Shown: positions 2,006 to 24,249 of the stretch, in pieces
Numbering within the stretch: the first letter of the stretch is position 1
How the letters are laid out: every line of letters begins with the position of its first letter
Assembly (NCBI GenBank): GCA_965277405.1
Contig: OZ255726.1
Coordinates: 1,129,123-1,161,122, forward strand
Reading direction: 5' to 3'
DNA length: 32,000 bases
DNA from: Gammaproteobacteria bacterium
GTDB taxonomy: Bacteria; Pseudomonadota; Gammaproteobacteria; G965277405
Position numbers and translations under genes: made by a program
The notes under the pieces: model-generated
Told to the model about the DNA's origin: nothing
Database searches by the model: none
Seen by the model: the letters and a program-made list of their open reading frames with translations, nothing else

Positions 2006-2938
2006 ATGCACTTGATAAACAAAATACCCAACAAGGAACTCCTGTTCCTCTTAGTTGCCGCCGTTGTGATATTTTCGATATTTGCAAATCGATTTTTGAC
2101 GCCCTCGAACTTTGAGAACATTCTTACGGGTTATTCGTTTCTGGCAATTCTTGCCATCGGCCAGGGTCTGACCATCATGGTTAGAGGAATTGATCTCAGC
2201 ATCGGGTCGAACGTTGCTTTGGGGGCGATGGTGCTTTTCGATTTGACGATGATCCTGCAACTTCCAGGATATCAGGCAATACCGCTTGCGACCTTGGCTG
2301 CCTATCGCGGAGCAGTTTATGCCATTTCGGGGCGGCAACTTTTCCCCGAACTGTCTTCAAAACCCATAACCGACCCATGGATTCGTTATCTGGGTGATTT
2401 TATCGACCTAGGCGGTCTATTGCGGCTCGACGGTGTTGTGCAACTTCCCTGGATACCAGTTTCCTTTGTTGTGCTTCTTATCTTTGCCGCTGTCGTCCAG
2501 TTTGCGGTGTTTAGCACGCGCTGGGGGCTAAACCTGAGGACACTTGGGGGCAACGCGGAAGCCGCGCATCTTGCCGGTCTAAACACCAGCCTTCTGGAAA
2601 TTTCAGCCTATGTTATTTGCGGCCTAGCGGCCGGGCTTGCAGCCGTCATCCTAGTTGGACGCTTCACGACCGCGACGGAGGCGCTTGGCAGCGGCATGGA
2701 ACTAACCTCGATTGCTGCGGCCGTGATTGGCGGAACCAGGTTGCACGGTGGTGTAGGCGGGGTGTTCGGCCCGCTAATTGGCGCCTTCCTGCTTGGTGTT
2801 ATTTTGATCGGGTTGACGTTGATGGGCGTTTCGCAATTTATCCAGCAGATTTTGACGGGTACAATACTAATTGCAGCAGTTTCATATGATCGATTCCTCA
2901 TTCATCGTTCGAAAAAGCGTGCTGGGGTGACAACATGA
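2006..2938 (+). CDS. Sugar ABC transporter permease (RbsC/AraH family)
   Basis: Multi-TM protein with GIDLSIGS, LGGNAEAAHLAGLN and AAVIGGTRLHGGVGG blocks typical of CUT2 permeases. Its stop overlaps the next start (ATGA at 2935-2938). Confidence 0.8.
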   Translation: MHLINKIPNKELLFLLVAAVVIFSIFANRFLTPSNFENILTGYSFLAILAIGQGLTIMVRGIDLSIGSNVALGAMVLFDLTMILQLPGYQAIPLATLAAYRGAVYAISGRQLFPELSSKPITDPWIRYLGDFIDLGGLLRLDGVVQLPWIPVSFVVLLIFAAVVQFAVFSTRWGLNLRTLGGNAEAAHLAGLNTSLLEISAYVICGLAAGLAAVILVGRFTTATEALGSGMELTSIAAAVIGGTRLHGGVGGVFGPLIGAFLLGVILIGLTLMGVSQFIQQILTGTILIAAVSYDRFLIHRSKKRAGVTT

Positions 2939-4449: not shown

Positions 4450-5375
4450 GCACTTTTGCGGACAAATTTTCCAGCCTTGCATTGCCTATTGCGGTTGTAG
4501 TAACCGCTCTTGTGTTTGGACTGGTTGAGCCAGCCTTTTTGTCGTCGGGAAACCTGACGGGCATCGTGCATCGTATGGCGACCATTGGCATTATGGCAGT
4601 TGGCATGACGTTTGTGATCATGACAGGCGGCATTGACCTTGCGGTCGGTCCTGTTATGGCGCTCGCCGGGCTTGCGTCGTATTTCTCACTTCAGGTCGGC
4701 ATTCCCCTGCCATTGTCAATCGTGGTCGGCGTGTTGAGCGGTGCGGTTGTCGGTGCAATCAATGGCACAGCAATAGCGTTTTTCAGGTTGCCTGCGATAA
4801 TTGTGACCCTTGGCATGTTGTCGATCGTGCGTGGCGTGGCGCTGACGATCGGCGGACCGACCCTCCACCAGATCAGCGACCAACCTGCGTACACATTCAT
4901 AGGTACAGGGTCGTTTTGCGGCCTTCCGGTTTCGGTGTTGATTTTTGCATTGCTGGCTTTGATTGCAGTGCTGGTCCAGAAATACACCATCTACGGCCTT
5001 CAGATTTCGACCCTTGGTGACAATGAAAGAGCGTCGGAACTGTCCGGTCGCCCCACCCGATTGCTGAAATTGTCAACATATGTTGTGTGTGGAGTGACTG
5101 CAGCAATTGCGGGTATTATCGAGAGCTCACAAGTTTACACCGCGTCGGCGAACTTTGGTGAGTTTGGCACTGAACTCGATGTGATTTCAGCCGTCATACT
5201 TGGCGGGGCAAGCATGTTTGGCGGAAAGGAGTATGTATGGAACACAGTGCTGGGTGTCCTATTTCTGGGTGTGATCAATAGCGGGCTGAACATTTTGAAC
5301 ATTCCCGTGGATGTTCAGCTAATGGTCAAGGGCGCTATAATTGTTTTGGCGATCAGCGTTTCTTTGCATAAGTAA
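4446..5375 (+). CDS. Sugar ABC transporter permease (RbsC/AraH family), second copy
   Basis: GIDLAVGP, INGTAIAFFRLPAIIVTLGMLSIVRG, LGDNERASELSG and AVILGGASMFGG blocks. There is a 4-bp ATGA overlap with the ATPase gene. Confidence 0.85.
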   Translation: MSTFADKFSSLALPIAVVVTALVFGLVEPAFLSSGNLTGIVHRMATIGIMAVGMTFVIMTGGIDLAVGPVMALAGLASYFSLQVGIPLPLSIVVGVLSGAVVGAINGTAIAFFRLPAIIVTLGMLSIVRGVALTIGGPTLHQISDQPAYTFIGTGSFCGLPVSVLIFALLALIAVLVQKYTIYGLQISTLGDNERASELSGRPTRLLKLSTYVVCGVTAAIAGIIESSQVYTASANFGEFGTELDVISAVILGGASMFGGKEYVWNTVLGVLFLGVINSGLNILNIPVDVQLMVKGAIIVLAISVSLHK

Positions 5376-6573: not shown

Positions 6574-7140
6574 TTAGTAAATTAAATTCGCTCTGCGATT
6601 TAACTTCCACGCACCTTCATTATCAGCACTATCAACTGGTCGTAACTCACCATAACTGATTACATTAATATTTTTTTGCCGTACGCCACGAATACGTAAA
6701 TACCTAGCTACAGCTTCACCGCGACGATTACCTAATGCGTTATTATATTCAATCGTGCCACGATCATCAGCATGACCTTCGATAGTTACTTCTAATTCCG
6801 GCTGTGCAAGCAAACGAGATAAAATCACTTCTGCATGCGCATCTAACGCTTCAAACGCAATTCCCTTGAGTTCATCTTGATCATAGTCAAAGTAATATGT
6901 TTTAACATCTAAAAGTTCAGCCGTTCTTCGTGATTCTTCACTTGCTTCACTTGCTTCACTTGCTTCAGTGGCAGCAGTTGCTTGTTCGGTTGGTGTTTCT
7001 TGCTGTAGTGTGGCTTCTTGCTCTACAGTTTCAGCAACACTACCACTATCTTCGGTGTCACTACTTTTTACTTGATTTTGCGCGCAAGCACTAATTCCAG
7101 CTAAAAACACAAAAAACAAAATGGTTTGCAGTATTTTCAT
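6574..7140 (-). CDS. Peptidoglycan-associated lipoprotein-like protein (OmpA C-terminal domain)
   Basis: Lipobox LAGISAC after a hydrophobic leader, then an acidic low-complexity linker. OmpA/Pal C-terminal domain: EGHADDRGTIEYNNALGNRRGEAVARYL ... NRRANLIY. Confidence 0.85.
   Translation of the reverse strand: MKILQTILFFVFLAGISACAQNQVKSSDTEDSGSVAETVEQEATLQQETPTEQATAATEASEASEASEESRRTAELLDVKTYYFDYDQDELKGIAFEALDAHAEVILSRLLAQPELEVTIEGHADDRGTIEYNNALGNRRGEAVARYLRIRGVRQKNINVISYGELRPVDSADNEGAWKLNRRANLIY
6941..6967 (-). repeat. 9-bp in-frame tandem repeat x3 inside the pal-like gene
   Basis: CTTGCTTCA x3 on the plus strand, encoding (EAS)3 within ATEASEASEASEES. Confidence 0.9.
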
Positions 7141-7154
7141 TATATTTTTCCTAG

Positions 7155-7721
7155 TTAATATTTTAATTCAACTCGTCTATTTTGCATCCAAGCAGTTTCG
7201 TCATTCCCTTTGACTGCTGGGACCTCTTCACCATAGCTTACAACACGTACTGCTGTTTTGGGAACACCTCGATGAACTAAATACGTACTTACAGCAGCAG
7301 CCCGTCTTTCTGCTAAGGCAATATTATAGCCTTTAGAGCCACGATCGTCTGTATGTCCTTCAACTATAACAACAAGATTCGGGTTACTCAATAACGCATG
7401 TGTCATATTTTGCACATGAGCATCTAAAGTAGCGAATGCTTGTGGGCGTATTTGACTACTGTTCGTAGTAAATAAGAATACACGCTGTTGTAAGTTTGAG
7501 TCTGAGCCGAGTAATTCTAGGGATTGTGTAATCAAATAATCTGTTGGACGGAGTTCATCATCAAAACCAAACTCAGAACCTTGTGTAATGTCTTGTTCGG
7601 GAAAGTTTTGATCAGAAAAAAAGCTGTTGTTAGTATTGTCATCAACTGGAATAACAACTGCGCAACTCCCAATGGACGTCATCATAACAAAAAAAGCCAG
7701 TCGAATACTGGTGTCAATCAT
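7155..7721 (-). CDS. Second OmpA/Pal-like lipoprotein (tandem paralogue)
   Basis: Starting at internal Met 16 gives MIDTSIRLAFFVMMTSIGSC with lipobox SIGSC. The ORF could extend to 7766. C-terminal domain: EGHTDDRGSKGYNIALAERRAAAVSTYL ... NRRVELKY. Confidence 0.8.
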   Translation of the reverse strand: MIDTSIRLAFFVMMTSIGSCAVVIPVDDNTNNSFFSDQNFPEQDITQGSEFGFDDELRPTDYLITQSLELLGSDSNLQQRVFLFTTNSSQIRPQAFATLDAHVQNMTHALLSNPNLVVIVEGHTDDRGSKGYNIALAERRAAAVSTYLVHRGVPKTAVRVVSYGEEVPAVKGNDETAWMQNRRVELKY

Positions 7722-7940
7722 AACTATACTGCCATTGGCTTTGTGAACGAGAATATATTTTAACAAGATGCTTAAGTGTTCTGTAGTAAGAAAGCTGATT
7801 TCCTATACAAATTATAATTGTCAGGTAGGTTATTAGCATATTATTGTGTGAAACTCTAGGGAAAATGTAAATATCAAAATCTGATAATCTCTTGGCAATA
7901 ATAGTAGAAAGTTTACAAACTCTTGGCACTATACTAACAG

Positions 7941-8238: not shown

Positions 8239-8507
8239 CTTTGATTAAGCCCATGATGGGCGAGACGGAGAAAAAAACGCTGATAAAACTTAAGCGAAGT
8301 GCGCGCTAACGCTTGGTGGGTCTTGCCAAGTGCTGCAACGAGGCAGCGCAGCGTTTTTTCCCGTTGTTGTGTTGAATATACTTTCGGTTTGCGGCAGCGG
8401 CACTTGCTGTGTTGCATCCCATGGCGTATATGCTATGCCATGCGCTTAGCGCCTTGCAATCCTCAGCAAATGCAGGCAAACTCGCGCCATAAGCGAGTTA
8501 ATCAAAG
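8239..8507 (+). repeat. MITE-like TIR-bounded repeat, copy 2
   Basis: Ends are CTTTGATTAAGC (8239-) and GTTAATCAAAG (-8507). The core is alignable by eye to copies 1 and 3 at roughly 75-85% identity with indels. Confidence 0.8.
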
Positions 8508-8589
8508 ATTACATAGGGCAGCGGTAATGCCTTGTAATCAACGCCAGTTCGATACAAACTTGGCGTATTTGCAATTATTAATATATTAT

Positions 8590-9576
8590 ATGCAATACCC
8601 TCAAACTAGAATGCGCCGGCTACGCTCTGACGTATGGATACGGAAACTGGTACAACAAACATCGTTAAGCGTGCATGACTTTATCTACCCTGTATTCGTC
8701 CACTATGACCCAAACCATCGTCAGCCGATTGCCGCGCTGCCTGGGATTGAGCGGATGGGTAATACAGTGTTGCTGCGTCATTTGCAGCCATTGGTACGGC
8801 AAGGGTTGCTGGCGATTGCAATATTTCCTGTTATTGATGCTAACAAAAAATCAGCAGATGCTGCTGAGGCTTGGAACCCTAACGGATTGGTGCAACAAGC
8901 AGTCGTTAGTGTTAAAAAGCACTTTCCTCAACTTGGGGTGATTACTGATGTTGCCTTGGATCCGTATACCAGCCACGGTCAAGATGGGCTCATGGATGCG
9001 CATGGATATATCGTCAATGACAGCAGTTGCGATGTGTTAGTGAAACAGGCGTTGTCGCATGCAGATGCAGGTGCTGATATAGTTGCACCGTCTGATATGA
9101 TGGATGGGCGGATTGGGTTAATTCGCACTGCTTTGGAGGAACATGCGTATCCATTAGTTAAAATATTGGCATATAGTGCGAAATATGCATCAGCATATTA
9201 TGGACCGTTTCGCGCAGCGGTTGGTTCAGTACAAAGCCTTGCTGGTGCTAATAAATCAACGTACCAAATGGATATCGCCAACAGTGCCGAAGCGCTAAAG
9301 GAAATTCAATTAGATATCGATGAAGGCGCTGATATTGTTATGGTAAAACCGGCGCTACCGTATCTGGATATCATTCAGTCGGCACATAACATATTTAAAA
9401 CAACACCTGTGTTTGCATATCAAGTGAGTGGTGAGTATGCGCAACTCCAAGCTGCAATAGCCAATGGCTGGCTTGATGATGCGGCTATTGTCGAAGCATG
9501 TATGGCGATAAAGCGTGCGGGGGCGAGTGCAATGTTGAGTTACTTTACTCCGAAAATTTTTTCATTGCTGGCGTGA
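8590..9576 (+). CDS. hemB: Porphobilinogen synthase (delta-aminolevulinic acid dehydratase)
   Basis: MQYPQTRMRRLR... is a typical HemB N-terminus. Active-site lysine contexts SAKYASAYYGPFR and IVMVKPALPYLD are present. DVALDPYTSHGQDG is the Asp-rich (non-Cys, Mg-type) metal site. The start is set at ATG 8590 because upstream ORF codons lie inside repeat copy 2. Confidence 0.9.
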   Translation: MQYPQTRMRRLRSDVWIRKLVQQTSLSVHDFIYPVFVHYDPNHRQPIAALPGIERMGNTVLLRHLQPLVRQGLLAIAIFPVIDANKKSADAAEAWNPNGLVQQAVVSVKKHFPQLGVITDVALDPYTSHGQDGLMDAHGYIVNDSSCDVLVKQALSHADAGADIVAPSDMMDGRIGLIRTALEEHAYPLVKILAYSAKYASAYYGPFRAAVGSVQSLAGANKSTYQMDIANSAEALKEIQLDIDEGADIVMVKPALPYLDIIQSAHNIFKTTPVFAYQVSGEYAQLQAAIANGWLDDAAIVEACMAIKRAGASAMLSYFTPKIFSLLA

Positions 9577-10604
9577 GTAGTTTGCATGCGCTAAATGACG
9601 TTATTATTTCTCAACAGAACACTCTGGCTGTTCCAGCAATAGCAGATGCGCTTGTGGTTGTGAGCCACTTGCAAGATGTCCAACAATTGCCAGCCTTACA
9701 AGAGCGTCTGCAGTTGCCAATACTGCTGCTCGGTAGTGGGAGTAACGTGGTATTACCACAACGGTTGCATCGGCTAGTTGTTAAGTTGGCTGTTGGCAAA
9801 ATGAGTGTTCACGCAGAAGATGATGCGTCGATCATCATTGATGTGGCAGCGGGCTATAACTGGCATCAACTCGTCTACACGGCGACACAACGCGGCTGGT
9901 TTGGTTTAGAGAAGTTAGCGCTTATTCCAGGGACTGTTGGTGCAGCTCCTTTGCAAAATATAGGCGCATATGGCGCATCATTTAGTGATTGTTGTGTGGC
10001 GGTAGAATATTATGATTTGCAGCAGCAAACGTGGTGTTGGCGTGCTAGTGAGCGTTGTGAATTTGGATATAGAACGAGTTGGTTTGCCCACCAACGTCAG
10101 TTGATAGTTACTCAAGTCAGGTTGCGATTAGCTAAATTTGCAGCTGCTATTCAGCCTGAATATCAGCAGTTGCGAGATAGGTGTGGTGACCAGCTTGCGC
10201 CGATGGATGTGTTGCATGCGGTCATTGCCTTGCGTACAAGAAAACTTCATGACCCGCAGCGCACCCCAAATGCTGGGAGTTTTTTTCACAATCCTGTTGT
10301 CGATGTGGCGATTGCAGAGAATATTTGCACTAGGTTTCCACAAATCAAATCACATGTTCGTCAACAACAAGTTGTTATCCCTGCAGCTGCACTTATTGAA
10401 CACGCTGGTCTCAAAGGTTTTTGCGATAGTGTGTACAATGGTGCTGCAGTGTCGGGGCGACACGCGCTGTGTCTTATCAATTGTGGCCATGCAACAGGGA
10501 ATGATTTTTTGCGACTTGCCAAGCACATCCAGCGCACAGTATTGGCGCAATTTGGGGTATTGTTGACGATAGAACCGCAGGTAATTCAGCCCGTCCAACA
10601 ATGA
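9573..10604 (+). CDS. murB: UDP-N-acetylenolpyruvoylglucosamine reductase
   Basis: LLGSGSNVV, LALIPGTVGAAPLQNIGAYG, FGYRTS and NAGSFFHNP match MurB blocks. GTG 9573 overlaps the hemB stop (GTGA) and gives 343 aa, against ~342 aa for E. coli MurB. ATG 9498 would lie inside hemB. Confidence 0.85.
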   Translation: MSSLHALNDVIISQQNTLAVPAIADALVVVSHLQDVQQLPALQERLQLPILLLGSGSNVVLPQRLHRLVVKLAVGKMSVHAEDDASIIIDVAAGYNWHQLVYTATQRGWFGLEKLALIPGTVGAAPLQNIGAYGASFSDCCVAVEYYDLQQQTWCWRASERCEFGYRTSWFAHQRQLIVTQVRLRLAKFAAAIQPEYQQLRDRCGDQLAPMDVLHAVIALRTRKLHDPQRTPNAGSFFHNPVVDVAIAENICTRFPQIKSHVRQQQVVIPAAALIEHAGLKGFCDSVYNGAAVSGRHALCLINCGHATGNDFLRLAKHIQRTVLAQFGVLLTIEPQVIQPVQQ

Positions 10605-10632
10605 TGTAATCATAGGAGTAGCAGCAGATAAT

Positions 10633-11811
10633 ATGGCAGTATCGATACCAGCTTTTCCAGAGTTCTACACACATGAGTTTCGTACAGTTGTGGCAGCAAC
10701 GCATGTGCGGTATGCCAATCGTGACGATATGGTTATGATTGAATTACCCGATACTGCAACGATTGCTGGGGTATTTACGCTTAACGCATTTGCCGCGGCA
10801 CCTGTTAAGATATGTCGCAATCATATGCAGCGAGCAACAGCAAAATACCTCATCGTCAACTCTGGTAATGCGAATGCTGCCACAGGCGCCCAAGGGCTTG
10901 TCGCTGCGCAGGAGATTTTACAGCACTATGCCATTATGCTTGGATGTCATATTGAGCAAATCCTGCCGTTCTCTACAGGTGTGATTGGTGAGCAGTTGCC
11001 TATTGAGAAACTCAAACGTGGGTTTTCGTTGCCTATCGATTGGCGGCATAATGCTTGGCTACGCGCGACGCAGGCGATGATGACGACTGATACCCAAGCC
11101 AAAGCCGTATATTTACGCGATGGTGGTGTATATATTGCGGGAATTATAAAAGGGTCTGGCATGATTGAGCCACATATGGCAACCATGTTGGGGTTTTTAT
11201 TTACAAATATGACCGTAAATCAAGCAGATCTGCAGCAATTGCTGACGGAGGTTGTCGATGTTACTTTTCATTGTTTGACAATAGACAGTGATACATCAAC
11301 AAATGATAGTGTGATGCTTAGTGCAAGCAATACACAGCACATCAGTATGTCAAGGTTTTCCGTATTGCTCGAGCGTGCTTGTAGTCAATTGGCACAAATG
11401 GTGGCGCGAGATGGCGAAGGCGCGAGCAAGTTTATAACTGTGCAAGTATACGGTGAGGCACACCAGCAAGCTCGCAGTATTGGCAAAGCAGTGGCGAATT
11501 CACCATTAGTAAAAACTGCGCTGTTTGCTAGCGACCCGAATTGGGGAAGAATTATTATGGCCGTTGGCAAAGCTGGTGTGAATATCGACCAACGCTTGGT
11601 AGATATTTGGATAAATAATGCCTGTGTTGTCACAGCTGGCATGCAGGCAGCAAGCTATAGTGAAGCTATCGGTCAAAAGTTGTTACAGCAAGAAGACATT
11701 ACCATTGATATTTATATGCGAGGCAAAGGAACCCAGCCCCCGAGCGCGCGTATTTGGACATGCGATTTGTCTCATGAATACGTACGGATAAATGCTGAGT
11801 ACCGCAGCTAG
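10633..11811 (+). CDS. argJ: Bifunctional glutamate N-acetyltransferase / amino-acid acetyltransferase
   Basis: Self-cleavage site context GMIEPHMATMLGFLFT, then TNDSVM and DPNWGRI blocks. Confidence 0.9.
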   Translation: MAVSIPAFPEFYTHEFRTVVAATHVRYANRDDMVMIELPDTATIAGVFTLNAFAAAPVKICRNHMQRATAKYLIVNSGNANAATGAQGLVAAQEILQHYAIMLGCHIEQILPFSTGVIGEQLPIEKLKRGFSLPIDWRHNAWLRATQAMMTTDTQAKAVYLRDGGVYIAGIIKGSGMIEPHMATMLGFLFTNMTVNQADLQQLLTEVVDVTFHCLTIDSDTSTNDSVMLSASNTQHISMSRFSVLLERACSQLAQMVARDGEGASKFITVQVYGEAHQQARSIGKAVANSPLVKTALFASDPNWGRIIMAVGKAGVNIDQRLVDIWINNACVVTAGMQAASYSEAIGQKLLQQEDITIDIYMRGKGTQPPSARIWTCDLSHEYVRINAEYRS

Positions 11812-16400: not shown

Positions 16401-17105
16401 ATGCGACTAAACTATAAATTTCAACATGCCGTGCTGCATGGCATAGCTGATAAATTACGTAATGTTCGACTGTTTGCTATAATAAGCGCAGGTTTTTTGG
16501 GATTGGTTTCAGGTTGTTCATTGCTTGGTCTTGCTGATGGTGCGGAAAATACGACGCCTGCTGACTCGTTGGCTCAATTATTAGGTAATCAGCTCGGCCA
16601 ACAAAAAACCAATCAACGGGTTTCAGCTGCTTCTATATATGGTGAGAAAGGCATTATTTTATATGATCCTTTAGGGAATGGTACGGATTTCGTGTTGGAC
16701 CCATCTGGGCGGATTGTGAAATCTGATTTAGACGCGGCAGAAACAGGATTAGAAATTAACGATTTGGAACGACGTTTTTTTCGTTCCAACAAGCATCTGA
16801 TTGATGCCGAAAGTTTATTTTATTCTGGTTTGTACGAAGAAGCACTCAACGAAACAAAAGCATCAATTGAGCTTACTCCGCGTTCAGCAAAAGCTTATGC
16901 AATAAAAGGTTCATTGGAATATAAGCTTGGGCGGCTAGAGCGTGCTAGAGCAGCTTGGATGGTTGCATTAAAGCTTGACCCAAAGATGAAAAGCGTGTCA
17001 CGCGCCCTCTATTTAACTTCTATTCCTGATGCAAATCAAAGAATAGCTGCAACAAGTGGCAGCACGGATAGCGCAGTAGTAGTTGGTGGGGGCACAGAAC
17101 AGTAA
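16401..17105 (+). CDS. Lipoprotein with C-terminal TPR-like repeats
   Basis: Lipobox GLVSGC after a hydrophobic stretch. TPR-like helices: YSGLYEEALNETKASIELTPRSAKAYAIKGSLEYKLGRLERARAAWMVALKLDPKM. Confidence 0.7.
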   Translation: MRLNYKFQHAVLHGIADKLRNVRLFAIISAGFLGLVSGCSLLGLADGAENTTPADSLAQLLGNQLGQQKTNQRVSAASIYGEKGIILYDPLGNGTDFVLDPSGRIVKSDLDAAETGLEINDLERRFFRSNKHLIDAESLFYSGLYEEALNETKASIELTPRSAKAYAIKGSLEYKLGRLERARAAWMVALKLDPKMKSVSRALYLTSIPDANQRIAATSGSTDSAVVVGGGTEQ

Positions 17106-17195
17106 TAATAATGAAAAATAATATTGCAGAGCATCCGTACATCTTATTCGGAAAGAGTCCGTGAATCTCATGCTTGATCAACTCCGTTTTTTATT

Positions 17196-19208
17196 ATGGG
17201 CTGTAATATAATGCCTCAAAATATACTGGCAATATTCATTGGCGTAGTGGTAATGCTCTCAGGTCAAGCATGGGCTGTAATTATTGATGTGGAAAATCCA
17301 GCTGTTGACGAGGTGTTTTTTGAAAAAGAAATGGAAAGCAGGCTTTCTCGTGATATTCAAGCATATCTTGGACATGATAGGTTTATTTTAGGTATTGATT
17401 TTAAGCTTTCTTCGTTTGCAGGCTTCGGGAGGCAAGGTAGCGATGCTGGTGATAGCGATGCTGGTGATAGAGTGGTTGTTCGTGAAATAACAACGTCATT
17501 GCCTGGTTTACCTGGTGCAGAAGTAAAATTTCAAAAAGAATTAACGGGTGAAGATATTAATAATTTGCGGGAAAATCTGCGCTTAGATGAAAGCTCGCTG
17601 GGGTCTAGAAGTCCGCTAAGCTCTGTGCTACAGCCAAGCACACAAAGTGCTAATGCGCTTGCAGGAACTGGAACTGAAGTGTTTCTTGTGTTAGATACTA
17701 CGGTGACAACGGCGCAGGAAAACTTTATCCGCGATGTAATGTCTAGAAAGTTGAGTATAGATCTAAACAAAGGTGATAGTATTCAAATCGTTCGATCTAC
17801 TTTTGAACGTGAAAGTAATAGTTCAAATACGAGCAATCAACAGCCTAATCAATTTGGAGAAAATCCTGCGCAGCAACCGCCATTATCTGGAAATCAAGTC
17901 CCCGTTGCAGGTGCAGGCGCACCAACTACTGACTCGGGAAATGTAAGTGATTCAGTAACTGATCCAACTTTGTTGCAAAAAATCAATGAACTTGAACAGG
18001 GGTTGAAGAAAGATTTTATTGAGAAAAATTTAGTTTGGATTTTACTCGGTGGCTTTGGTTTTTTATTGTTTTTTAGTCTGATATTGTTTTTGGCATCACG
18101 CAAACCGGCGCAATCAATGATGCCAGCGTATCCGCCGATGGCGCCGCCGCAAAGTCCTAGAACAGGCGCTAGTAATGCCGAAAAAAATAATGTTGATCAA
18201 ATTGAGATTGAGGGAATGCGTCATCGTGCGGTAGTGGCAGAAACTAAACGTGAGATTGCAGCGATAGGTTTAGCATCGCCCAATATTGTAAAACAAGAAA
18301 TGAACAATCTGTGGGCACAAAACCGCATGGATACGATTGCTGCTGTATATACTGGTCTTGGAAATTCAATTTATGAGTCATTGTTTGGTGGACTGTCTGC
18401 ATCTCAATCTTCAGAAATTAGTGCGTATTTATCAGAACGTGAAATCACATCGACACAATTAGAGGCACAAGTTAAAGATTTTTATTCTCGATCATTACGT
18501 GCTGCGAACGACCCTGATGGTAAGCATAAGTCGCATTCATTTGCATTCTTAAATAAAATGAGAATAGGGTCGCTGCAATTCTTGTTAAAAAATGAAAAAC
18601 CACGGGTCAAAGCCTTGGTTATTTCACAGCTTGAAAATGAAAAGGCAACGACTGTATTAAATAGTTTTGAGGATAAAGATCGAAGTAAAGTTGTTCATGA
18701 ATTAGCTCAATTTGAAGACTTTCCGTATGAGACATTTAATGAAGTTGCGCAATTATTGGTTAGAAAAGCTAAAAAAATTCCTGCTGTTAATAATGTTGGG
18801 GCAAATGGTATAAATATTTTAATTAATTTATTGGATAATATGGATAGCAGTGATGAAAGTCGCTTAATTGAAGAATTGCAAAATATGGATCCTGAGTTAC
18901 ACGATAAGCTTAAAACATTGTATTTTACTTTTAATGATCTAAGTAAAGCGCCGCTGCGTGTTATGGGTGAAGCGCTACTAGAAGTTGATAAAAGCACTAT
19001 CGCTATAGCGTTAATGCAAGCATCTGATGTTATTAGAAAACGTGTTTTAAGCAGTATGCCTAAGCGTGTTTCCCAGACTATTGAGGTTGAAATAAAAGAA
19101 ATACAAGACACTATTAAAAACGAACAGATTCAGTCTGCTCGAAAAGTGTTGTTACGCAGTATGCGTGCTTTAGTACGCAATGGTAAAATTGATATGAGTA
19201 AAATCTAA
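17196..19208 (+). CDS. Membrane-anchored FliG-like protein. Layout: N-terminal signal/TM, ~250-aa periplasmic region, TM helix, Pro-rich linker, then a cytoplasmic FliG middle + C-terminal-like domain
   Basis: N-terminal hydrophobic ILAIFIGVVVMLSGQAWA; TM at residues 279-300 (LVWILLGGFGFLLFFSLILFLA); linker PAYPPMAPPQSP. Residues ~455-670 carry FliG-like blocks: LLKNEKPRVKALVISQL (cf EHPQtiAliLs), GANGINILINLLD (cf GGxxxAAeILN), LYFTFNDL (cf MFvFEDl), and SSMPKRVSQTIEVEIKE...ARKVLLRSMRALVRNGKI (cf nMSkRaaemlkeDle...aqqkIv...RrLeeeGeI). The start could instead be ATG 17211. Confidence 0.8.
   Translation: MGCNIMPQNILAIFIGVVVMLSGQAWAVIIDVENPAVDEVFFEKEMESRLSRDIQAYLGHDRFILGIDFKLSSFAGFGRQGSDAGDSDAGDRVVVREITTSLPGLPGAEVKFQKELTGEDINNLRENLRLDESSLGSRSPLSSVLQPSTQSANALAGTGTEVFLVLDTTVTTAQENFIRDVMSRKLSIDLNKGDSIQIVRSTFERESNSSNTSNQQPNQFGENPAQQPPLSGNQVPVAGAGAPTTDSGNVSDSVTDPTLLQKINELEQGLKKDFIEKNLVWILLGGFGFLLFFSLILFLASRKPAQSMMPAYPPMAPPQSPRTGASNAEKNNVDQIEIEGMRHRAVVAETKREIAAIGLASPNIVKQEMNNLWAQNRMDTIAAVYTGLGNSIYESLFGGLSASQSSEISAYLSEREITSTQLEAQVKDFYSRSLRAANDPDGKHKSHSFAFLNKMRIGSLQFLLKNEKPRVKALVISQLENEKATTVLNSFEDKDRSKVVHELAQFEDFPYETFNEVAQLLVRKAKKIPAVNNVGANGINILINLLDNMDSSDESRLIEELQNMDPELHDKLKTLYFTFNDLSKAPLRVMGEALLEVDKSTIAIALMQASDVIRKRVLSSMPKRVSQTIEVEIKEIQDTIKNEQIQSARKVLLRSMRALVRNGKIDMSKI
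17439..17468 (+). repeat. Perfect 15-bp in-frame tandem duplication inside the FliG-like gene
   Basis: AGCGATGCTGGTGAT x2, encoding SDAGD-SDAGD in the periplasmic region. Confidence 0.9.
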
Positions 19209-19219
19209 GACTATTTTGC

Positions 19220-20011
19220 ATGCCATCCTTCGGAACAATTGGTGGCTTTATAGCAGGGATTGTACTGTTCACAACTGCTGTTAGCCAAGCCACTGATGAT
19301 TATATTATATTCCTAAGCGTCCCCAGCGTACTTTTAGTCGTTGGCGGTACGATTTCCGCAACATTTTTAAGTTTTGAGGTTAGGGATATTTTTAGTGCGT
19401 TTTTTGGTATGTTTTTTTTGTTTTTTAAGAAAAATAATGAGAAAGGTTTTAGAAAAGATATAAAGATGCTATTAGATTTTGCTAAAATACAACGAACAGA
19501 AGGAATGCTGCAAATTGAAATGCAACTTACAAGAACGCAACGTAAAGATGTTTTTATTAGCTTTGCTGTTGATTTACTATTGAGTAATTATCGTCCGGCT
19601 GAGATACGGTCAATGTTAACGGATATGGTATTAGCAAATTTTGATAAAGGTAACCTCAAGGCCTCTGTCATGCGTACAATGGGTGCGTATTCGCCTGCTT
19701 TTGGAATGATAGGTACGTTAATTGGTCTTATTATTATTCTCAGTGGATTCGGTGGAGATATATCACAACTAGGCGCTGGGCTTTCACTGGCGCTTATTTC
19801 CACCTTATATGGCGTTTTATTAGCCAATTTCACGTATTATCCTGCCGCAGAAAAATTCGCTAGAAATACTGATTTGCAACATTTTCGTGAAAAAATTTTA
19901 TTAGAAGGCTTTGTGTTGATTGCTGCAAGAAAAGGAGCGTTGGCTATACAGGATAAATTAAATAGCTTGTTAACGCCTGAATTACGCTACAAAATTAACA
20001 GTAGTCAATAA
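19220..20011 (+). CDS. motA: Flagellar-type stator protein MotA/PomA homologue (MotA/TolQ/ExbB proton-channel family)
   Basis: 263 aa with a 4-TM layout and a long cytoplasmic loop. RTEGMLQIE, AYSPAFGMIGTLIGLI, LGAGLSLALISTLYGVLLANFTYYPAAEKF and the C-terminal EGFVLIAARKGALAIQDKL align by eye with MotA of Bacillus and E. coli rather than ExbB/TolQ. Confidence 0.85.
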   Translation: MPSFGTIGGFIAGIVLFTTAVSQATDDYIIFLSVPSVLLVVGGTISATFLSFEVRDIFSAFFGMFFLFFKKNNEKGFRKDIKMLLDFAKIQRTEGMLQIEMQLTRTQRKDVFISFAVDLLLSNYRPAEIRSMLTDMVLANFDKGNLKASVMRTMGAYSPAFGMIGTLIGLIIILSGFGGDISQLGAGLSLALISTLYGVLLANFTYYPAAEKFARNTDLQHFREKILLEGFVLIAARKGALAIQDKLNSLLTPELRYKINSSQ

Positions 20012-20014
20012 GTC

Positions 20015-20713
20015 ATGGATGTGTATCCAGAAGGGGGGGTAGCTACAAGACTACAATCAAACAGCAGTGGAAAAGATGCTAGGAGGAATGAGCCTTGGCT
20101 GTTAACGTATTCAGACACGATTACTTTGCTTTTTACTTTTGTGCTGATAATTTTAAAAATTTCTTCTATTGATGTGAATAAGGCAGAAGAATTACGTGAA
20201 GGTTTATCTCAAACATTTTTAAAAAAAGATATTTCAACTGCATTTCAATCATTTTCAAAAGAAATTGAGCAAGTAACAAACATTAATCATGATTTACAGG
20301 TTGATATCACCAGTAGATACGTGACTATAGAGTTGACAAACTCAAGTATATACGATGTTGGTAGCGCTGATATTGTGAATAAAGAGATTAAAACTATACA
20401 GTCAGTAGTTGATATTCTAATACAAGACCCATACGCAAGGTATACATTAGAAGTTGAAGGACATACTGATGATGTTCCAATTAAAAACTTGGAGTTTCAG
20501 TCCAATTGGGAACTTTCAACTGCTCGAGCAACAAACATTGTTAGATATTTAGAAGAAAATGGTGTAAGTAGAGAACGGATGAAAGCAATTGGATACGCAG
20601 ATTCTAAACCATTGCCTGAGACCTTGGATATTAATGGCAATATTGTTCCTGAAAAAAGACCGTTAAATCGTAGAATTTCAATCCGTATTTCACGCTATAA
20701 AATTAATGACTAA
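20015..20713 (+). CDS. motB: MotB-like stator protein with OmpA-like peptidoglycan-binding domain
   Basis: EPWLLTYSDTITLLFTFVLIIL is the MotB TM helix, with the conserved Asp at codon 34 (20114-20116). C-terminal LEVEGHTDDVPI...SNWELSTARATNIVRYL...NRRISIRI is the OmpA-like domain. It starts 3 bp after motA. Confidence 0.85.
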   Translation: MDVYPEGGVATRLQSNSSGKDARRNEPWLLTYSDTITLLFTFVLIILKISSIDVNKAEELREGLSQTFLKKDISTAFQSFSKEIEQVTNINHDLQVDITSRYVTIELTNSSIYDVGSADIVNKEIKTIQSVVDILIQDPYARYTLEVEGHTDDVPIKNLEFQSNWELSTARATNIVRYLEENGVSRERMKAIGYADSKPLPETLDINGNIVPEKRPLNRRISIRISRYKIND

Positions 20714-21662
20714 AAGAGTTCATCATCAACAAATACAATCACTACTAAACGCTTTACAAAATAATATTGTTGGACAAAAAAAACTATTAGAAAGATTGAT
20801 CATTGGATTATTATCTGATGGACATATATTAGTTGAAGGCGCGCCAGGGTTAGCAAAATCGCTAACTGTTGCAACATTAGCAAAGCTTATAAACTGTGAT
20901 TTTCAGCGTATTCAATTTACTCCAGATTTACTCCCCAGCGATATTACAGGGAGTGAAATCTACAAGCCGCAAACTCAAGCATTTAGCTACCAAAAAGGGC
21001 CAATATTTAGTAATTTAGTGTTAGCTGATGAAATTAATAGAGCACCAGCAAAGGTTCAATCAGCCCTGCTTGAAGCAATGTCTGAACGCCAAGTAACCAT
21101 CGGCAATACAACGTATACGTTACCAGCTTTATTTCAGGTCATGGCAACTCAAAATCCCATTGAACACGAAGGTACGTTCCAACTGCCAGAAGCACAGCTT
21201 GATAGGTTTATTATGTATGTGGCAATTGATTATCCTTCTATAGATGAAGAGTTAATGATTATGCGACTTAATCAAAAAAAGGCGGTTGAGATCACACCAG
21301 TTATTGACATTACAACTATTTTGCAAGCACGTGAGGAAGTCCGTGAGATGTATATTCACGAAAGATTATTAATGTATATTGCAGAAGTTGTCCATGCTAC
21401 GCGTACCCAAAAAAACAGAACAAGTGGCAATCAAGGCTATATAGAAATAGGTGCAGGACCAAGAGCAAGTATTGCGTTAGCAACACTGTCACGTTCTCTT
21501 GCATATCTAAGAGGTCAAGACGAGGTCACTCCAGATATTATCCAAGAGCTGTGTTATGACGTGCTCGCCCATCGAATCATTTTAAATTTTAGCTCAGAAA
21601 ACACAGTTCAACAAAAATACCAAATAATTGACGAGGTACTGAGTAGCGTGAAAATTGTATAG
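20706..21662 (+). CDS. moxR: MoxR-family AAA+ ATPase
   Basis: Walker A EGAPGLAKS, Walker B plus downstream LADEINRAPAKVQSALLEAMSERQVTIG, then ATQNPIEHEGTFQLPEAQLDRF. Length 318 aa, with an 8-bp overlap with motB. Confidence 0.9.
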   Translation: MTKRVHHQQIQSLLNALQNNIVGQKKLLERLIIGLLSDGHILVEGAPGLAKSLTVATLAKLINCDFQRIQFTPDLLPSDITGSEIYKPQTQAFSYQKGPIFSNLVLADEINRAPAKVQSALLEAMSERQVTIGNTTYTLPALFQVMATQNPIEHEGTFQLPEAQLDRFIMYVAIDYPSIDEELMIMRLNQKKAVEITPVIDITTILQAREEVREMYIHERLLMYIAEVVHATRTQKNRTSGNQGYIEIGAGPRASIALATLSRSLAYLRGQDEVTPDIIQELCYDVLAHRIILNFSSENTVQQKYQIIDEVLSSVKIV

Positions 21663-22460
21663 ATGTTTCAAGTTTTAGAAAAGCTGTCAACAGGGTGGTT
21701 AATAAATTCCGAATATATCCAAGCAGCGTATGCGTATCAGCGCAAGGTCAGTAAAAGTAGGCTACATCATACTTATGGTGCCAGCAGATTAACAAAAAAA
21801 GGAAAAGGTTCTGATTTTGATCATTTAAGGGAGTTCACTAGCAGTGATGATATTCGACATATTGCATGGAAAGCTTCGTTACGATCACAAAAAACATATA
21901 CAAAAGTATTTTCTGATGAGATTGAAGATAAGATAAAAATTTATGTGATGTTGAATGCCGAGTTGTCATTTGCTATAAAAAAAAGATCTGCAGCATTTGC
22001 TTTATATATAGCACTCCACAGCGCTGTAGAAACATGTTATAAAAAAAATATGCAATGTGAAATTTTGCTTATTCATGGCAACAATGTCATCGAGAGAGCC
22101 AAAATACGTATGCAGAAAGAAATTATCAGAACACTTAGTAGCCTTGCTAAGAAAATCAACGCTGCAATGTGTAAGTATAAAACTGGTGATTTATTTAAAA
22201 TGGATGATATAAAGATTACTCCGCATTCAATTGTTCTTACAGGTGCGCGTAATATACAGCATTACGGATTAGATAGCAGCACCCTACTGGGCAGCACACT
22301 ACTGGTAGTAGATGAAGAACCATTGCAACGAATAAGAATTATTGCCCAAACAAATTCTGGTGTGAAACAGGTTAATGTCGGCGCAAATGCCATAGACTGC
22401 GCCATCGTTGCAGATGACACTGTCGAAGATATCTATGCAAAAGTGCAAAGCTGTATATGA
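21663..22460 (+). CDS. DUF58 domain protein (usual MoxR partner)
   Basis: GKGSDFDHLREFTSSDDIRHIAWKASLRSQKTYTKVF matches the DUF58 core (GxGxEF..R.Y..GDd.R.IdWk.tAR). The ATG directly abuts the moxR TAG. Confidence 0.8.
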   Translation: MFQVLEKLSTGWLINSEYIQAAYAYQRKVSKSRLHHTYGASRLTKKGKGSDFDHLREFTSSDDIRHIAWKASLRSQKTYTKVFSDEIEDKIKIYVMLNAELSFAIKKRSAAFALYIALHSAVETCYKKNMQCEILLIHGNNVIERAKIRMQKEIIRTLSSLAKKINAAMCKYKTGDLFKMDDIKITPHSIVLTGARNIQHYGLDSSTLLGSTLLVVDEEPLQRIRIIAQTNSGVKQVNVGANAIDCAIVADDTVEDIYAKVQSCI

Positions 22461-22870
22461 AAGATGTTCATCAACCATATAATTTATATCTTTATTTAAA
22501 TATTACTTGGATTGCTATTGCAATTGTTTTCATGGTATTTCTTATAATAAGTTATATATATTTACAACGATATCTAGCAAATAGAAAAATACAGCAAACT
22601 ATACGTAGGTTGCAAGATATAGAGAGCGATGAGGTTTTTGCATTAAACATTGTGCAAGCCATCAAGCATTCAATGGATGAACATGGGATACAAAGCAATA
22701 TGCTCCATGGCGAACGCTTGTATAAAACCTTGCTTAAACATTACAAATACAAGGCAACCATCACATTAAGAGACTTTTTAATATCAACATACAAAGAACA
22801 AAAAATGATTCAGAGACATTTAGTTCTAAAAGAAATTGAGTTACTAATAAAAAGCAATGTTAGCAATTGA
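22457..22870 (+). CDS. Small single-pass membrane protein, in the position held by DUF4381-type proteins in Bat-like operons
   Basis: TM helix ITWIAIAIVFMVFLIISYIYL followed by a basic stretch. It has 4-bp and 14-bp overlaps with its neighbours. The family assignment is by position only. Confidence 0.55.
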   Translation: MKDVHQPYNLYLYLNITWIAIAIVFMVFLIISYIYLQRYLANRKIQQTIRRLQDIESDEVFALNIVQAIKHSMDEHGIQSNMLHGERLYKTLLKHYKYKATITLRDFLISTYKEQKMIQRHLVLKEIELLIKSNVSN

Positions 22871-23783
22871 TTGGCCGCTATTTTCTATTGTAGTAATTGG
22901 TTGCTATGTATTGTATAAATACCGAAAAACCATCCGCGTTACTAGCATCTGGTATCCATTTGTAATAGATGAGGCAACTAAAAAATCTCACTATCGTTCG
23001 TCCTTTTTATTTGCAGTGTGCTCTATATTGCTGATTGGCGGAGGTATGCGCCTGCAAAAAATAGATGAAACTGTTAGTATTAAGCAGAATTATAGGGACT
23101 TAATACTAGCAATAGACGCATCAGATAGCATGCGAGTACGCGATATGGAAATAAATAATCAGCTTTTTAGCAGATACGACGCTGTAAAATATTATATGGA
23201 TAAGTTTATCGATAAACGTCAAGGTGATCGATTAGGGTTTGTGATATTCGGATCAAAGGCATATATTCAAGCACCATTAACAGCCGATTTATCGGTGATA
23301 AAAACATACCTAGAAGAGTCATATATAGGCATTGCTGGGCCAAAGACGGCAATTGGTGATGCACTTGCCTTAGCAGTCAAACAAAAAGACAAAGATGACA
23401 CGAATCAAGCAATTATTTTAATAACAGACGGCTCAAATACATCAGGAACAATTGATCCATATCAAGCCGTAGCAATTGCAAAAAAAAAGAAGATTAAAAT
23501 ATATACCATAGCTATTGGCAATAGACGATTTTCACGAGACATAGATTTTAGGTTTCTGCAAACCGCTGCAGCATCAACCAACGGCAAGCATTTCTATGCC
23601 AGTAACGCAAATGAATTGGCATCTATTTATGCGCAACTAGATCGACTAGAACAAAATATCGAACAGTCTTCAACGTTTAGCAAGTATTTTGAGTTGTACT
23701 ATTGGTTTGTATTAGCCTTCATTATTGTGTTTATAGTGGGTTATATGTTTACTCCGTCAAGGCGTGTCAGGAAACATATATAA
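22857..23783 (+). CDS. BatA-like membrane protein with von Willebrand factor A domain
   Basis: Two N-terminal TM helices and one C-terminal TM helix. MIDAS motif LILAIDASDSM and AIILITDGSNTSG. Confidence 0.85.
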   Translation: MLAIDWPLFSIVVIGCYVLYKYRKTIRVTSIWYPFVIDEATKKSHYRSSFLFAVCSILLIGGGMRLQKIDETVSIKQNYRDLILAIDASDSMRVRDMEINNQLFSRYDAVKYYMDKFIDKRQGDRLGFVIFGSKAYIQAPLTADLSVIKTYLEESYIGIAGPKTAIGDALALAVKQKDKDDTNQAIILITDGSNTSGTIDPYQAVAIAKKKKIKIYTIAIGNRRFSRDIDFRFLQTAAASTNGKHFYASNANELASIYAQLDRLEQNIEQSSTFSKYFELYYWFVLAFIIVFIVGYMFTPSRRVRKHI

Positions 23784-23814
23784 AACAACTTTAGGCAATT
23801 TAATGCGAATCATA

Positions 23815-24249
23815 ATGGATAATAATCAATTAAAAATTGCTGGATTTAGTTTGATTGAATTGCTGATTGTAATGGTGATTGTTGCTGTACTCAGTGTTGT
23901 CGCCTTGCCAGTATACCAAACGTATGTAGGGCGAGCAAAGTTTACAGAGGTTATTCAAGCTACCGCACCATATAAAATTGCCGCAGAAATTGCATGGCAA
24001 AATACTGCAACGAGTCTAACTGATCTTGATGCTGGATCCCATGGAATTCCAGATGCAACAGGAAGTAATGACCGCGAAATAAAATCTATCACTATGGTCG
24101 CTGGAGTTATTACCGCAACAGCAAATACTGTCGTAGATGAAAACAACGCAGGAGTAACTTACGTACTTCAGGCCCACGATTTTTCAGGTGGAATCATATG
24201 GAAGGTTGATGCTGCCAACAGTAGCTGTAAAAATCTTGGCTATTGTTGA
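23815..24249 (+). CDS. Type IV pilin (prepilin with N-terminal methylation motif)
   Basis: Leader MDNNQLKIAG, then the cleavage/methylation motif G|FSLIELLIVMVIVAVLS. The C-terminus is CKNLGYC (Cys pair). Starts at GTG 23764 or ATG 23803 would give atypically long leaders. Confidence 0.85.
   Translation: MDNNQLKIAGFSLIELLIVMVIVAVLSVVALPVYQTYVGRAKFTEVIQATAPYKIAAEIAWQNTATSLTDLDAGSHGIPDATGSNDREIKSITMVAGVITATANTVVDENNAGVTYVLQAHDFSGGIIWKVDAANSSCKNLGYC

Follow-up and report, generated by a model that had tools for sequence, protein, structure and literature searches.

A predicted natural FliF-FliG fusion encoded with a flagellar-type stator and a TPR lipoprotein outside any flagellar gene context

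To our knowledge, FliF and FliG have been described so far solely as flagellar proteins. In Salmonella FliF the RBM3 domain spans residues 228-438 and is composed of RBM3a, the beta-collar and RBM3b; a FliF fragment containing RBM3 alone forms the S-ring with its collar. The export gate sits within the RBM2 ring, and FliG_N is bound by the C-terminus of FliF (PMC11739650). Stators of the flagellar type (FIT) are taken as a marker of flagella and have so far been regarded as exclusively flagellar, and it is well established that 5:2 units of the MotAB type couple ion flow to rotation of MotA around MotB; the contacts with the rotor considered most important for torque are charge pairs of the R90/E98-D289/R281 type (PMC12505986). 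Here we describe a locus that combines these parts in a different setting: nine genes at positions 16401-24249 of a 32,000-nucleotide stretch of gammaproteobacterial DNA (assembly GCA_965277405.1, contig OZ255726.1, positions 1,129,123 to 1,161,122; hereafter the window), among them motA, motB and a gene for a 670-aa protein that is predicted to be a natural FliF-FliG fusion.

Two kinds of described systems are related in design. Single-chain FliF-FliG proteins that assemble into rings resembling the MS-ring have been engineered, as deletion fusions in Salmonella and as FliFG in Vibrio (PMC10941966, PMC11481574). The engineered fusion forms MS-rings (PMC10941966), and covalent linkage of FliF to FliG is therefore compatible with ring assembly. 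These constructs contain full-length FliF with RBM1-3 and two transmembrane (TM) helices, are about 100 kDa in size and reside inside a normal flagellum, whereas the window protein is encoded naturally, has neither RBM1/2 nor TM1, and is found outside a flagellar context. The second group is formed by ExbBD-TonB, TolQR-TolA, AglRQS, GldLM and ZorAB, in which an inner-membrane ion-driven 5:2 unit energises a periplasmic, outer-membrane or surface process without a flagellum. The concept is the same, but these motors use generic (GIT-type) A and B subunits and non-FliG partners (PMC12505986), whereas the locus described here encodes a flagellar-type stator with plug and OmpA domain and what appears to be a genuine FliG, with no ZorA, ExbD or TolR signature.

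We consider it probable that this locus is a self-contained, minimal flagellum-derived rotor-stator unit and not a flagellum. Its core consists of four genes on the plus strand: a TPR (tetratricopeptide repeat) lipoprotein gene (16401-17105; Pfam TPR_2 2.4e-07), the fusion gene (17196-19208), motA (19220-20011; Pfam MotA_ExbB 1.1e-18) and motB (20015-20713; Pfam MotB_plug 4.8e-11, OmpA 2.2e-15), separated by gaps of 90, 11 and 3 nt, respectively. A first-pass annotation of the window had reported eight or nine same-strand genes with defined junction distances, and the list of open reading frames (ORFs) gives nine and reproduces the distances exactly; Pfam agrees with every domain call, DUF58 and DUF4381 being borderline. 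Its observation that a flagellar-type MotA/MotB pair shares an operon with a membrane-anchored FliG protein, in the absence of other flagellar or chemotaxis genes from the 32 kb, is likewise confirmed. What it overlooked, according to our profile comparisons, is the FliF-homologous N-terminal half of the 670-aa protein, running from RBM3 to the FliF C-terminus, and the completeness of the FliG part with its N, M and C domains, so that the protein would represent a whole minimal rotor subunit. The predicted order of its parts is a signal peptide, the RBM3/S-ring domain of FliF, a TM helix, the C-terminal FliG-binding helix of FliF and a complete FliG.

The FliF relationship was established with family profiles. 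A profile of 46 superfamily members matched Salmonella FliF in the PDB (6scn_A, E 6.5e-11, profile positions 34-319 aligned to FliF 229-558 of 560) and Vibrio FliF (2.4e-8), with a FliG_N match (5tdy_B) directly after the FliF part, and FliF was still the top PDB match of a profile made from the N-terminal halves alone. The alignment of these halves shares with FliF the first helix of RBM3, the beta-alpha-beta unit of RBM3b with 'RGDxLxVVxSPF', and the C-terminal FliG-binding helix, where FliF 'DPRVVALVIRQWMSND' is aligned with the family consensus 'qPelvanvledWlee'. Since the homology starts at FliF residue 229, the protein is FliF truncated exactly between RBM2 and RBM3, with a whole FliG joined to its C-terminal end; the lengths, approximately 332 plus 331 aa versus 670, are consistent with such a fusion. 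RBM1, RBM2 and TM1 of FliF are missing, with a signal peptide in their place, and no housing for a type III export gate is left because of that loss. Among Pfam families, YscJ_FliF_C (PF08345, the C-terminal half of FliF) was detected in 12 of the 46 superfamily members scanned singly, P0011 exceeds its Pfam threshold across the whole model, and PF01514 (YscJ_FliF) matched neither any family member scanned nor the unfused FliF' protein described below.

The predicted topology comprises a signal peptide with an AXA-type site, about 250 periplasmic residues, one TM helix and about 370 cytoplasmic residues. The signal peptide (aa 1-27, cleaved between AWA and V; 17196-17276) is suggested by the hydrophobic N-terminus and by AXA-type sites that are present family-wide; an alternative start is annotated at M6, and the database copy of the protein (P0001) has 665 aa. 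The RBM3-like S-ring domain (17298-17798) was delineated by the core of an AlphaFold2 model and by alignment to RBM3a and RBM3b, and consists of a helix (35-58), a strand (63-68), an insertion of roughly 90 aa where the beta-collar would lie, a strand (161-167), a helix (172-185) and a last strand (195-201) with the signature 'GD....V....F'. The single TM helix (approximately aa 278-302; 18027-18101), equivalent to TM2 of FliF, was found by a hydropathy scan, coincides with a modelled helix at 258-300 and lies inside the FliF-aligned span. It is followed by a cytoplasmic helix (...GLASPNIVKQEMNNLW...; 18228-18311) that corresponds to the FliG_N-binding segment at the C-terminus of Salmonella FliF and is modelled as a helix at 331-360 with a predicted local distance difference test (pLDDT) score above 90. 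The model was built on the 46-sequence alignment, a 12-sequence alignment having given a poor periplasmic part; its mean pLDDT is 77, with values of 87-97 in the alpha-beta...beta-alpha-beta core, a long TM helix, and values above 90 in the FliG region. In a Foldseek comparison, FliG structures came first (9 of the top 13 near full length), and the strongest non-FliG matches were FliF MS-ring and RBM3-collar structures, with probabilities of 0.84-0.97 and weak E-values. The insertion at the beta-collar position contains the motif 'LPGLP' (aa 102-106; 17499-17513), which is invariant in the 12 closest members and nearly so superfamily-wide; no FliF counterpart of this motif was identified.

The FliG part (18321-19193) includes domains N (approximately aa 376-450), M (458-529) and C (559-666). 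A strong match to FliG profiles was expected from the first-pass annotation, and is indeed observed for the window protein itself (Pfam FliG_M 1.5e-13, FliG_C 2e-19), the 46-member profile matching FliG in the PDB at 1e-46. When the 46 members were scanned singly, FliG_M and FliG_C were found in all of them and FliG_N in 34. The family profile covers residues 23-321 of E. coli FliG, so the FliG part is complete; the same profile covers stand-alone 310-aa FliG proteins from residue ~10, and Foldseek aligns some 310-320 columns to near-full-length FliG chains. One FliG feature is missing throughout. The FliM-binding motif EHPQ...R160 of FliG_M is replaced by E-[K/D/E]-x-R...E in 24 of 24 orthologs, with H126, Q128 and R160 changed, and its positions are variable across the 46 superfamily members. 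The window and all the loci fetched are devoid of fliM and fliN, and the loss of the FliM-binding motif is consistent with the absence of a switch complex.

The stator proteins are of the flagellar type. The best PDB matches of MotA are MotA of Aquifex, Clostridium and Bacillus and PomA of Vibrio, at about 1e-25 and over nearly the full length; it scores 1e-30 or better with flagellar MotA/PomA models versus 1e-4 with ExbB, and MotP, PomA and MotA are its best NCBIfam models, all far below their equivalog cut-offs, in what is a ranking by similarity. For MotB the best PDB matches are flagellar MotB and PomB, and NCBIfam MotD is matched at 5e-43. The pair carries the sequence features by which FIT-class stators are recognised (PMC12505986): an A subunit with four TM segments (3-22, 27-54, 155-182 and 183-204), a cytoplasmic loop of about 100 residues and R90/E98, and a B subunit with the TM aspartate, a plug and an OmpA-like domain. 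Other identities of the pair were tried and rejected. Zorya was dropped since PADLOC found no ZorA match for MotA and none for the other proteins, MotB having only generic ZorB/MotB similarity (63 bits), and an ExbBD/TolQR/AglRQS-type unit was rejected on account of the MotB-type B subunit with plug and OmpA domain and of the four TM segments of the A subunit.

Functional residues were tabulated for 24 non-redundant orthologs mapped onto reference sequences that were validated by their lengths and by the agreement of residue numbers with the published ones. On the stator side, the equivalent of MotA R90 is present in 23 of the 24 and those of E98, P173 and P222 in all of them; Asp34 of MotB, corresponding to D32 in E. 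coli, is conserved in 24/24. On the rotor side, the torque helix of the window protein carries R624, E632 and K641. The position of FliG R281 is occupied by R or K in all 24 orthologs and in 42 of the 46 superfamily members, and that of D289 by E or D in 24/24. Thus the two main torque charge pairs are kept. A separate pattern was seen in the Bermanella-type clade described below, where all 20 MotA proteins (e.g., L022:11890-12684) have Asp at the positions of PomA K89 and E97, yielding R-D...E-D, while in their FliG partners Cys takes the place of K264 and the R297 position is occupied by small residues. This cassette-specific charge pattern may make the rotor and stator cognate and insulated from the flagellar set.

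The conserved torque charges bear on another possible role, in which a static FliF'-FliG platform would unplug or gate MotAB and the complex would serve as a regulated ion leak, as a sensor of membrane potential or mechanical force, or as a peptidoglycan-anchored tether. Such a platform would account for the absence of an axle, a bushing and an obvious rotating load, the TPR lipoprotein together with an OmpA-type anchor might hold the ring fast, and the charges of FliG K264 and R297 are lost. However, the two charge pairs that matter most for torque and the prolines P173 and P222 of MotA are conserved across deep divergence, and 5:2 units of this type are those in which ion flow is coupled to MotA rotation. 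We consider a static platform improbable compared with a rotor-stator unit.

Of the known systems the nearest is the flagellar motor core. Relative to this core, the cassette retains RBM3 and the S-ring domain of FliF, TM2, the C-terminal FliG-binding helix, a complete FliG with its torque charges, the equivalents of MotA R90, E98, P173 and P222, and the MotB aspartate (D32), plug and OmpA domain. It differs from that core in that the FliF and FliG parts form one polypeptide, in that a signal peptide replaces TM1, RBM1 and RBM2, in the loss of the FliM-binding EHPQ/R160, in the absence of nearby fliM/N, flh, fliPQR, rod, hook and filament genes, and in its dedicated partners, namely a TPR lipoprotein plus the putative outer-membrane barrel that most lineages have. 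Of the hallmarks of a canonical flagellar locus, three are thus lacking, namely RBM1-RBM2-RBM3 between two TM helices, the EHPQR motif together with FliM/FliN, and the gene context, and one of the canonical motor is present, that is, FliG_C torque charges complementary to MotA R90/E98.

The conservation of this unit was assessed in 88 loci that came from look-ups of gene context and from scanning genomes and metagenomes (the metagenome query being an alignment of a 14-sequence subset), of which 86 were used for counting co-occurrence. A homolog of the TPR lipoprotein gene is situated directly upstream of the fusion gene in 72 of 77 assessable loci, and motB downstream of it in 57 of 63; MotB counts are given because motA was undercounted at loci where its start lies 4 nt inside the fusion gene, separate inspection showing that it is present there. 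The same gene order recurs on many independent contigs, and the arrangement is therefore not due to chance. The neighbourhood found by the first-pass annotation is thus conserved in related genomes, with one correction: the TPR lipoprotein gene, which had been taken as the boundary of the operon, accompanies the rotor gene more constantly than any other. An exhaustive hidden Markov model search with the family profile collected at least 159 clusters at 50% identity (E<1e-30), most of them of 550-730 aa, twice the normal length of FliG. A word-indexed search retrieved only 12 clusters, the same 12 being returned with the superfamily alignment as query, and a single-sequence scan of genome contigs gave no match in a collection that is devoid of the window's clade at 44-50% identity. 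The conserved unit consists of the TPR lipoprotein, FliF'-FliG and MotAB, often with a putative outer-membrane barrel.

The TPR protein has a lipobox (...LVSG-C39, followed by Ser) whose Cys is invariant in 12 of 12 aligned orthologs, and its repeats lie at the C-terminal end (approximately aa 130-200). It is conserved where MoxR is absent and was therefore assigned to the motor cassette and not to a Bat module. Periplasmic TPR/Sel1 scaffolds are known from elaborated flagellar motors, namely MotX of the Vibrio T-ring and PflA/PflB of Campylobacter. These resemble the window protein in being repeat-helical periplasmic proteins encoded with, and presumably contacting, a PomAB-like stator or a rotor ring; they differ in that the window protein is a lipoprotein in a non-flagellar cassette, the similarity being one of TPR in general. 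A specific relationship to MotX or PflA/B was rejected, as a PDB search gave generic TPR matches only. Just upstream of the TPR gene, 49 of 60 assessable loci encode a 377-436-aa protein with an end resembling that of outer-membrane barrels ('...TLGYRF/Y'; L022:8196-9329, with homologs in L003-L028, L031:105-1247 and L032:749-2059), which is a candidate outer-membrane partner. Identification of the 377-aa protein of the Bermanella-type clade as FlgO was dropped, since the match was sub-threshold (E 0.0012) and was not reproduced in distant homologs.

Besides the fused form, an unfused version of the cassette was found at two loci. In L087 (6487-8933; also in L088) a 504-aa FliF' is followed by a 310-aa FliG with overlapping stop and start codons, and the only Pfam family of this FliF' is YscJ_FliF_C, matched above threshold and over the whole model (E 9.8e-10). 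MotA-MotB and three TPR proteins are encoded upstream and one TPR gene downstream, the flanks carry genes for the synthesis of purines and lipids, and further flagellar genes are absent. The unfused form suggests that the fusion arose from an adjacent gene pair. Gene order is permuted in a Bacteroidota-like lineage (L029), where motAB lies two genes downstream of the fusion gene. On this contig, whose neighbouring genes include type IX secretion system Por_Secre_tail proteins, a TPR homolog and a weak match to the outer-membrane-like protein are located between the fusion gene and motAB (9232-10972) instead of upstream.

These data also address the possibility that the cassette is no more than a decaying, functionless residue of a flagellar system that has disappeared. 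Compared with a flagellum the gene set is truncated, and genomes in the window's clade are small. Nevertheless, the ORFs are intact, the functional residues are conserved, and the ratio of nonsynonymous to synonymous substitution rates (dN/dS) is 0.04-0.11 in the TPR (0.11), fusion, motA and motB genes, where dS is saturated and the ratios are rough, dN being far below dS. The four core genes are under purifying selection. Moreover, the reduced architecture is found in the at least 159 clusters across very different lineages, and in the unfused form as well. The conservation pattern effectively refutes decay, to which we would assign a minimal probability.

No flagellar genes were detected within 10 kb on either side in any locus examined. 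The cassette is present in a clade of Bermanella, Oceaniserpentilla and Thalassolituus, from which MoxR is missing. In Bermanella sp. R86531 (NZ_CP139003.1), whose genome is complete, it sits among housekeeping genes, with a pterin dehydratase gene on one side and pyrG-eno-ftsB-ispDF on the other. Bermanella marisrubri is a flagellated species (PMC6248924), and the cassette is therefore an extra system in that clade. A canonical motor locus is argued against by this presence in flagellated Bermanella away from flagellar genes, as well as by the missing RBM1/2 and the missing FliM-binding motif. The cassette could instead be an accessory or regulatory part of a flagellum encoded elsewhere: a decoy rotor that sequesters or pre-activates stators, a part acting as a brake or clutch, or a rotor belonging to a second, specialised flagellum whose other genes are at a different locus. 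Such a function would agree with the occurrence of the Bermanella-type clade in a flagellated genus, with the stator-contact charges retained in FliG_C, and with those distant members that have no adjacent motAB and would need stators encoded elsewhere. On the other hand, 57 of 63 loci have their own tightly linked, co-evolving motAB, flagellar genes are absent from all the neighbourhoods examined, and the fusion protein would be unable to template assembly of an export gate or a C-ring because it lacks RBM1/2 and the FliM-binding motif. In addition, the closest relatives of the window come from genomes of 1.8-2.2 Mb, and a 469-aa multi-ankyrin-repeat protein is encoded near the cassette in a 1.8-Mb relative (L001:5334-6743); small genomes and an ankyrin-repeat protein are suggestive of a host-associated lifestyle. 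We see little likelihood in an accessory role and return to the self-contained rotor-stator unit.

A possible mechanism of such a unit is as follows. The fusion protein would be exported via its signal peptide and cross the inner membrane once, its periplasmic FliF-RBM3 domain would oligomerise into an S-ring-like ring, and a ring of complete FliG subunits would thereby be suspended below the membrane. A stator of the MotA5B2 type, held to peptidoglycan by the OmpA domain of MotB and passing ions via the conserved Asp, would act on the FliG_C torque helix through pairing of MotA R90 with FliG D289 and of MotA E98 with FliG R281, so that the ring would turn or at minimum come under torque. With RBM1/RBM2, export gate, rod, hook and filament all missing, the periplasmic ring is where the output would have to be taken up, most likely by the TPR lipoprotein and in most lineages also by the putative outer-membrane beta-barrel protein. 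In the window's clade the appended MoxR-DUF58-DUF4381-VWA proteins probably aid assembly or remodelling, or may merely be co-expressed. Ring competence finds support by analogy, in the rings formed by RBM3 alone and in the MS-rings formed by engineered FliF-FliG.

Several observations weigh against the rotor-stator interpretation. Homology, residue conservation, gene linkage and selection are what the sequences show; that rings form and turn, which partner is coupled to them and whether MoxR takes part are inferred. The window protein by itself matches no Pfam FliF family, and its link to FliF is made through family profiles and relatives; it is counted in the FliF family because it aligns with FliF-matching relatives and has a modelled RBM core. 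A periplasmic-domain profile from eight close sequences had no match in the PDB, FliF being reached only with the wider superfamily profile. The insertion at the beta-collar position is shorter than that of FliF and is modelled as disordered. Among the torque residues of FliG, K264 and R297 are not conserved in the 24 orthologs, and the position of D288, acidic in 22 of them, is Val in the window protein and Ser in one other member. Neither the window nor the loci fetched from its clade contained the putative outer-membrane protein. Several very distant members keep the TPR partner and have no adjacent motAB, so a dedicated stator is not universal. Finally, the locus scans were biased towards closer relatives, and the roughness of the dN/dS ratios noted above applies here too.

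A further step would be to regard the cassette, together with the outer-membrane barrel in most lineages, as an autonomous envelope-spanning rotary machine, the first known use of a FliF/FliG rotor outside the flagellum and the first known non-flagellar job of a flagellar-type stator. We put this forward tentatively, as an interpretation that falls somewhat short of an even chance. In such a machine the spinning periplasmic ring could drive a process at the outer membrane or the cell surface, MoxR and VWA proteins having been recruited in the window's clade, and the machine could be either a repurposed derivative of the flagellar motor or a surviving relative of a rotor-stator module that predates the union with type III export. 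The first-pass annotation had proposed a non-flagellar envelope machine driven by ion-motive force, with MoxR/VWA proteins taking part in its assembly or output. The first half of that proposal is strengthened, whereas MoxR and VWA do not hold as a general part of the machine, moxR following motB only in the five loci described next.

Downstream of motB, the window encodes a MoxR-type AAA+ ATPase (20706-21662; Pfam AAA_3 5.8e-63 and AAA_lid_2), a DUF58-like protein, the usual partner of MoxR (21663-22460; 23.5 bits against a cut-off of 23.4, hence borderline), a small single-TM protein resembling DUF4381 (22457-22870; 26.2 vs 27.2 bits, also borderline; TM 9-41) and a BatA-like membrane protein with a von Willebrand factor A (VWA) domain (22857-23783; Pfam VWA 9.4e-18), all on the plus strand. 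Their genes are packed tightly: motB and moxR overlap by 8 nt, moxR and the DUF58 gene are separated by no gap, and overlaps of 4 and 14 nt follow. The Walker A (GAPGLAKS) and Walker B (LVLADE) motifs of MoxR are intact, as is the metal ion-dependent adhesion site (MIDAS) of the VWA protein (DASDS at aa 87), which has TM segments at 1-20, 48-66 and 276-302 and matches NCBIfam BatA at 4e-39 with a score of 134 versus a cut-off of 380. The module has the gene order customary in Bat operons of the Bacteroides, Leptospira and Francisella type: a MoxR AAA_3 protein, DUF58, a TM protein like DUF4381 and a BatA-like membrane VWA protein that contains a MIDAS. It differs from them in being truncated, with no BatB, BatC, BatD or BatE downstream of the VWA gene in the window, in its translational coupling to motB, and in that this linkage is limited to the window's clade.

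The distribution of the module is narrow. The moxR gene is found downstream of motB in 5 of 56 assessable loci, all of the window's clade (L001/L002, L007 and L008=L033); the Bermanella-type clade, those distant members that were sampled and the unfused version all lack the module. Within the clade, DUF58 is carried by the orthologs in L001, L007 and L008, a DUF4381-like gene is also present in L008, and the VWA gene was seen only in the window and L008; L008 has all nine genes including the pilin, and L001 and L007 end after DUF58. At 44-50% identity of the fusion protein the motB-moxR linkage is kept in three different neighbourhoods, the junction being -8 nt in the window, -1 in L001, -1 in L007 and +73 in L008. 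A terminator scan showed no plus-strand terminator-like sites between genes of the block, although counts from the promoter/terminator scan of the window did not exceed the shuffled expectation and are uninformative.

The tight motB-moxR junctions persisting in three neighbourhoods, the intact Walker and MIDAS motifs and the lack of terminator-like sites within the block could be explained if MoxR-DUF58-VWA were an integral part of the machine, as an assembly factor or output module. The module is, however, absent from 51 of the 56 assessable loci, and L001 and L007 have MoxR-DUF58 with no VWA gene nearby. Bat-type MoxR operons are common stand-alone units, and adjacency within one clade can stem from a single fusion event. 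An integral role is thus rather unlikely in our estimation, if less so than a static or an accessory function of the cassette, and the first-pass view of MoxR-DUF58-VWA as a general partner of the stator and rotor has to be given up. MoxR-DUF58-DUF4381-VWA is a lineage-specific appendage and not a core part of the conserved unit; most plausibly it is a chaperone module of the Bat type that the operon acquired in a single clade.

The last gene of the block encodes a type IV prepilin of the PpdD/PilA type (23815-24249, plus strand; Pfam N_methyl and Pilin, NCBIfam PRK10574 7e-23), its ATG lying 31 nt after the VWA gene and its ORF being open from a GTG at 23764. A 50% identical ortholog occupies the same position in L008 only (window 23764-24249; L008:16844-17302). 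The prepilin gene is directly after the VWA gene in both lineages that have the latter, either by functional linkage or as inherited synteny. The membership of the pilin in the system is doubtful.

The block is flanked in the window by housekeeping genes (hemB, murB, argJ, mutS and pmbA, the last on the minus strand, and ftsH, tRNA-Val, thrS, infC, rplT and pheS), and the leftmost 8 kb contains a sugar ABC transporter, two OmpA-family genes and tRNA-Leu. The window proteins are singletons in clustering at 90% identity. GC content is about 0.52 in the sugar ABC-transporter block (974-5375), 0.41-0.47 in the housekeeping genes and 0.35-0.39 in the nine-gene operon (17000-24000), and from this contrast either the transporter block or the operon could have been acquired horizontally. 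The OmpA-family genes form a tandem pair (6574-7766, minus strand) about 9 kb upstream of the cassette; a similar tandem pair occurs in L008 (313-2183, minus strand) about 7 kb upstream of the cassette, the genes in between being different. Farther downstream on the L008 contig there is a type I-F Cas3 (21792-22022). The longest hemB ORF (8299-9576) has a GTG start about 100 residues ahead of the ALAD domain, and the longest murB ORF (9498-10604) overlaps it by 79 nt; both are probably over-extended, with true starts further downstream.

In the literature searched, with subscription-only literature outside it, we found no description of a natural FliF-FliG fusion, of a FliG-MotAB-MoxR cassette or of a FliF'-FliG-TPR cassette, the only FliF-FliG fusions being engineered; this agrees with the earlier impression that no such system has been characterised. 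The parts all belong to known flagellar or MoxR families, and it is their assembly that is apparently new. In one source database a family member is annotated as 'flagellar motor switch protein FliG', and such labels, together with the flagellar MotA/MotB-type models that are the best NCBIfam matches of the stator genes, could inflate predictions of motility in non-flagellated or host-associated bacteria. The cassette keeps the torque-generating core of the flagellum, that is, the S-ring domain, FliG and MotAB, while export-gate housing, switch, rod, hook and filament have been discarded. If the proposed function is true, it would represent a new class among the few ion-driven 5:2 motors with a non-flagellar output, and would provide a naturally minimal rotor-stator pair for structural and biophysical study. 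It would also offer a handle on the assembly of the flagellar motor from pre-existing modules, a question on which a sister versus nested position in the phylogeny of FliF, FliG and MotA would bear.

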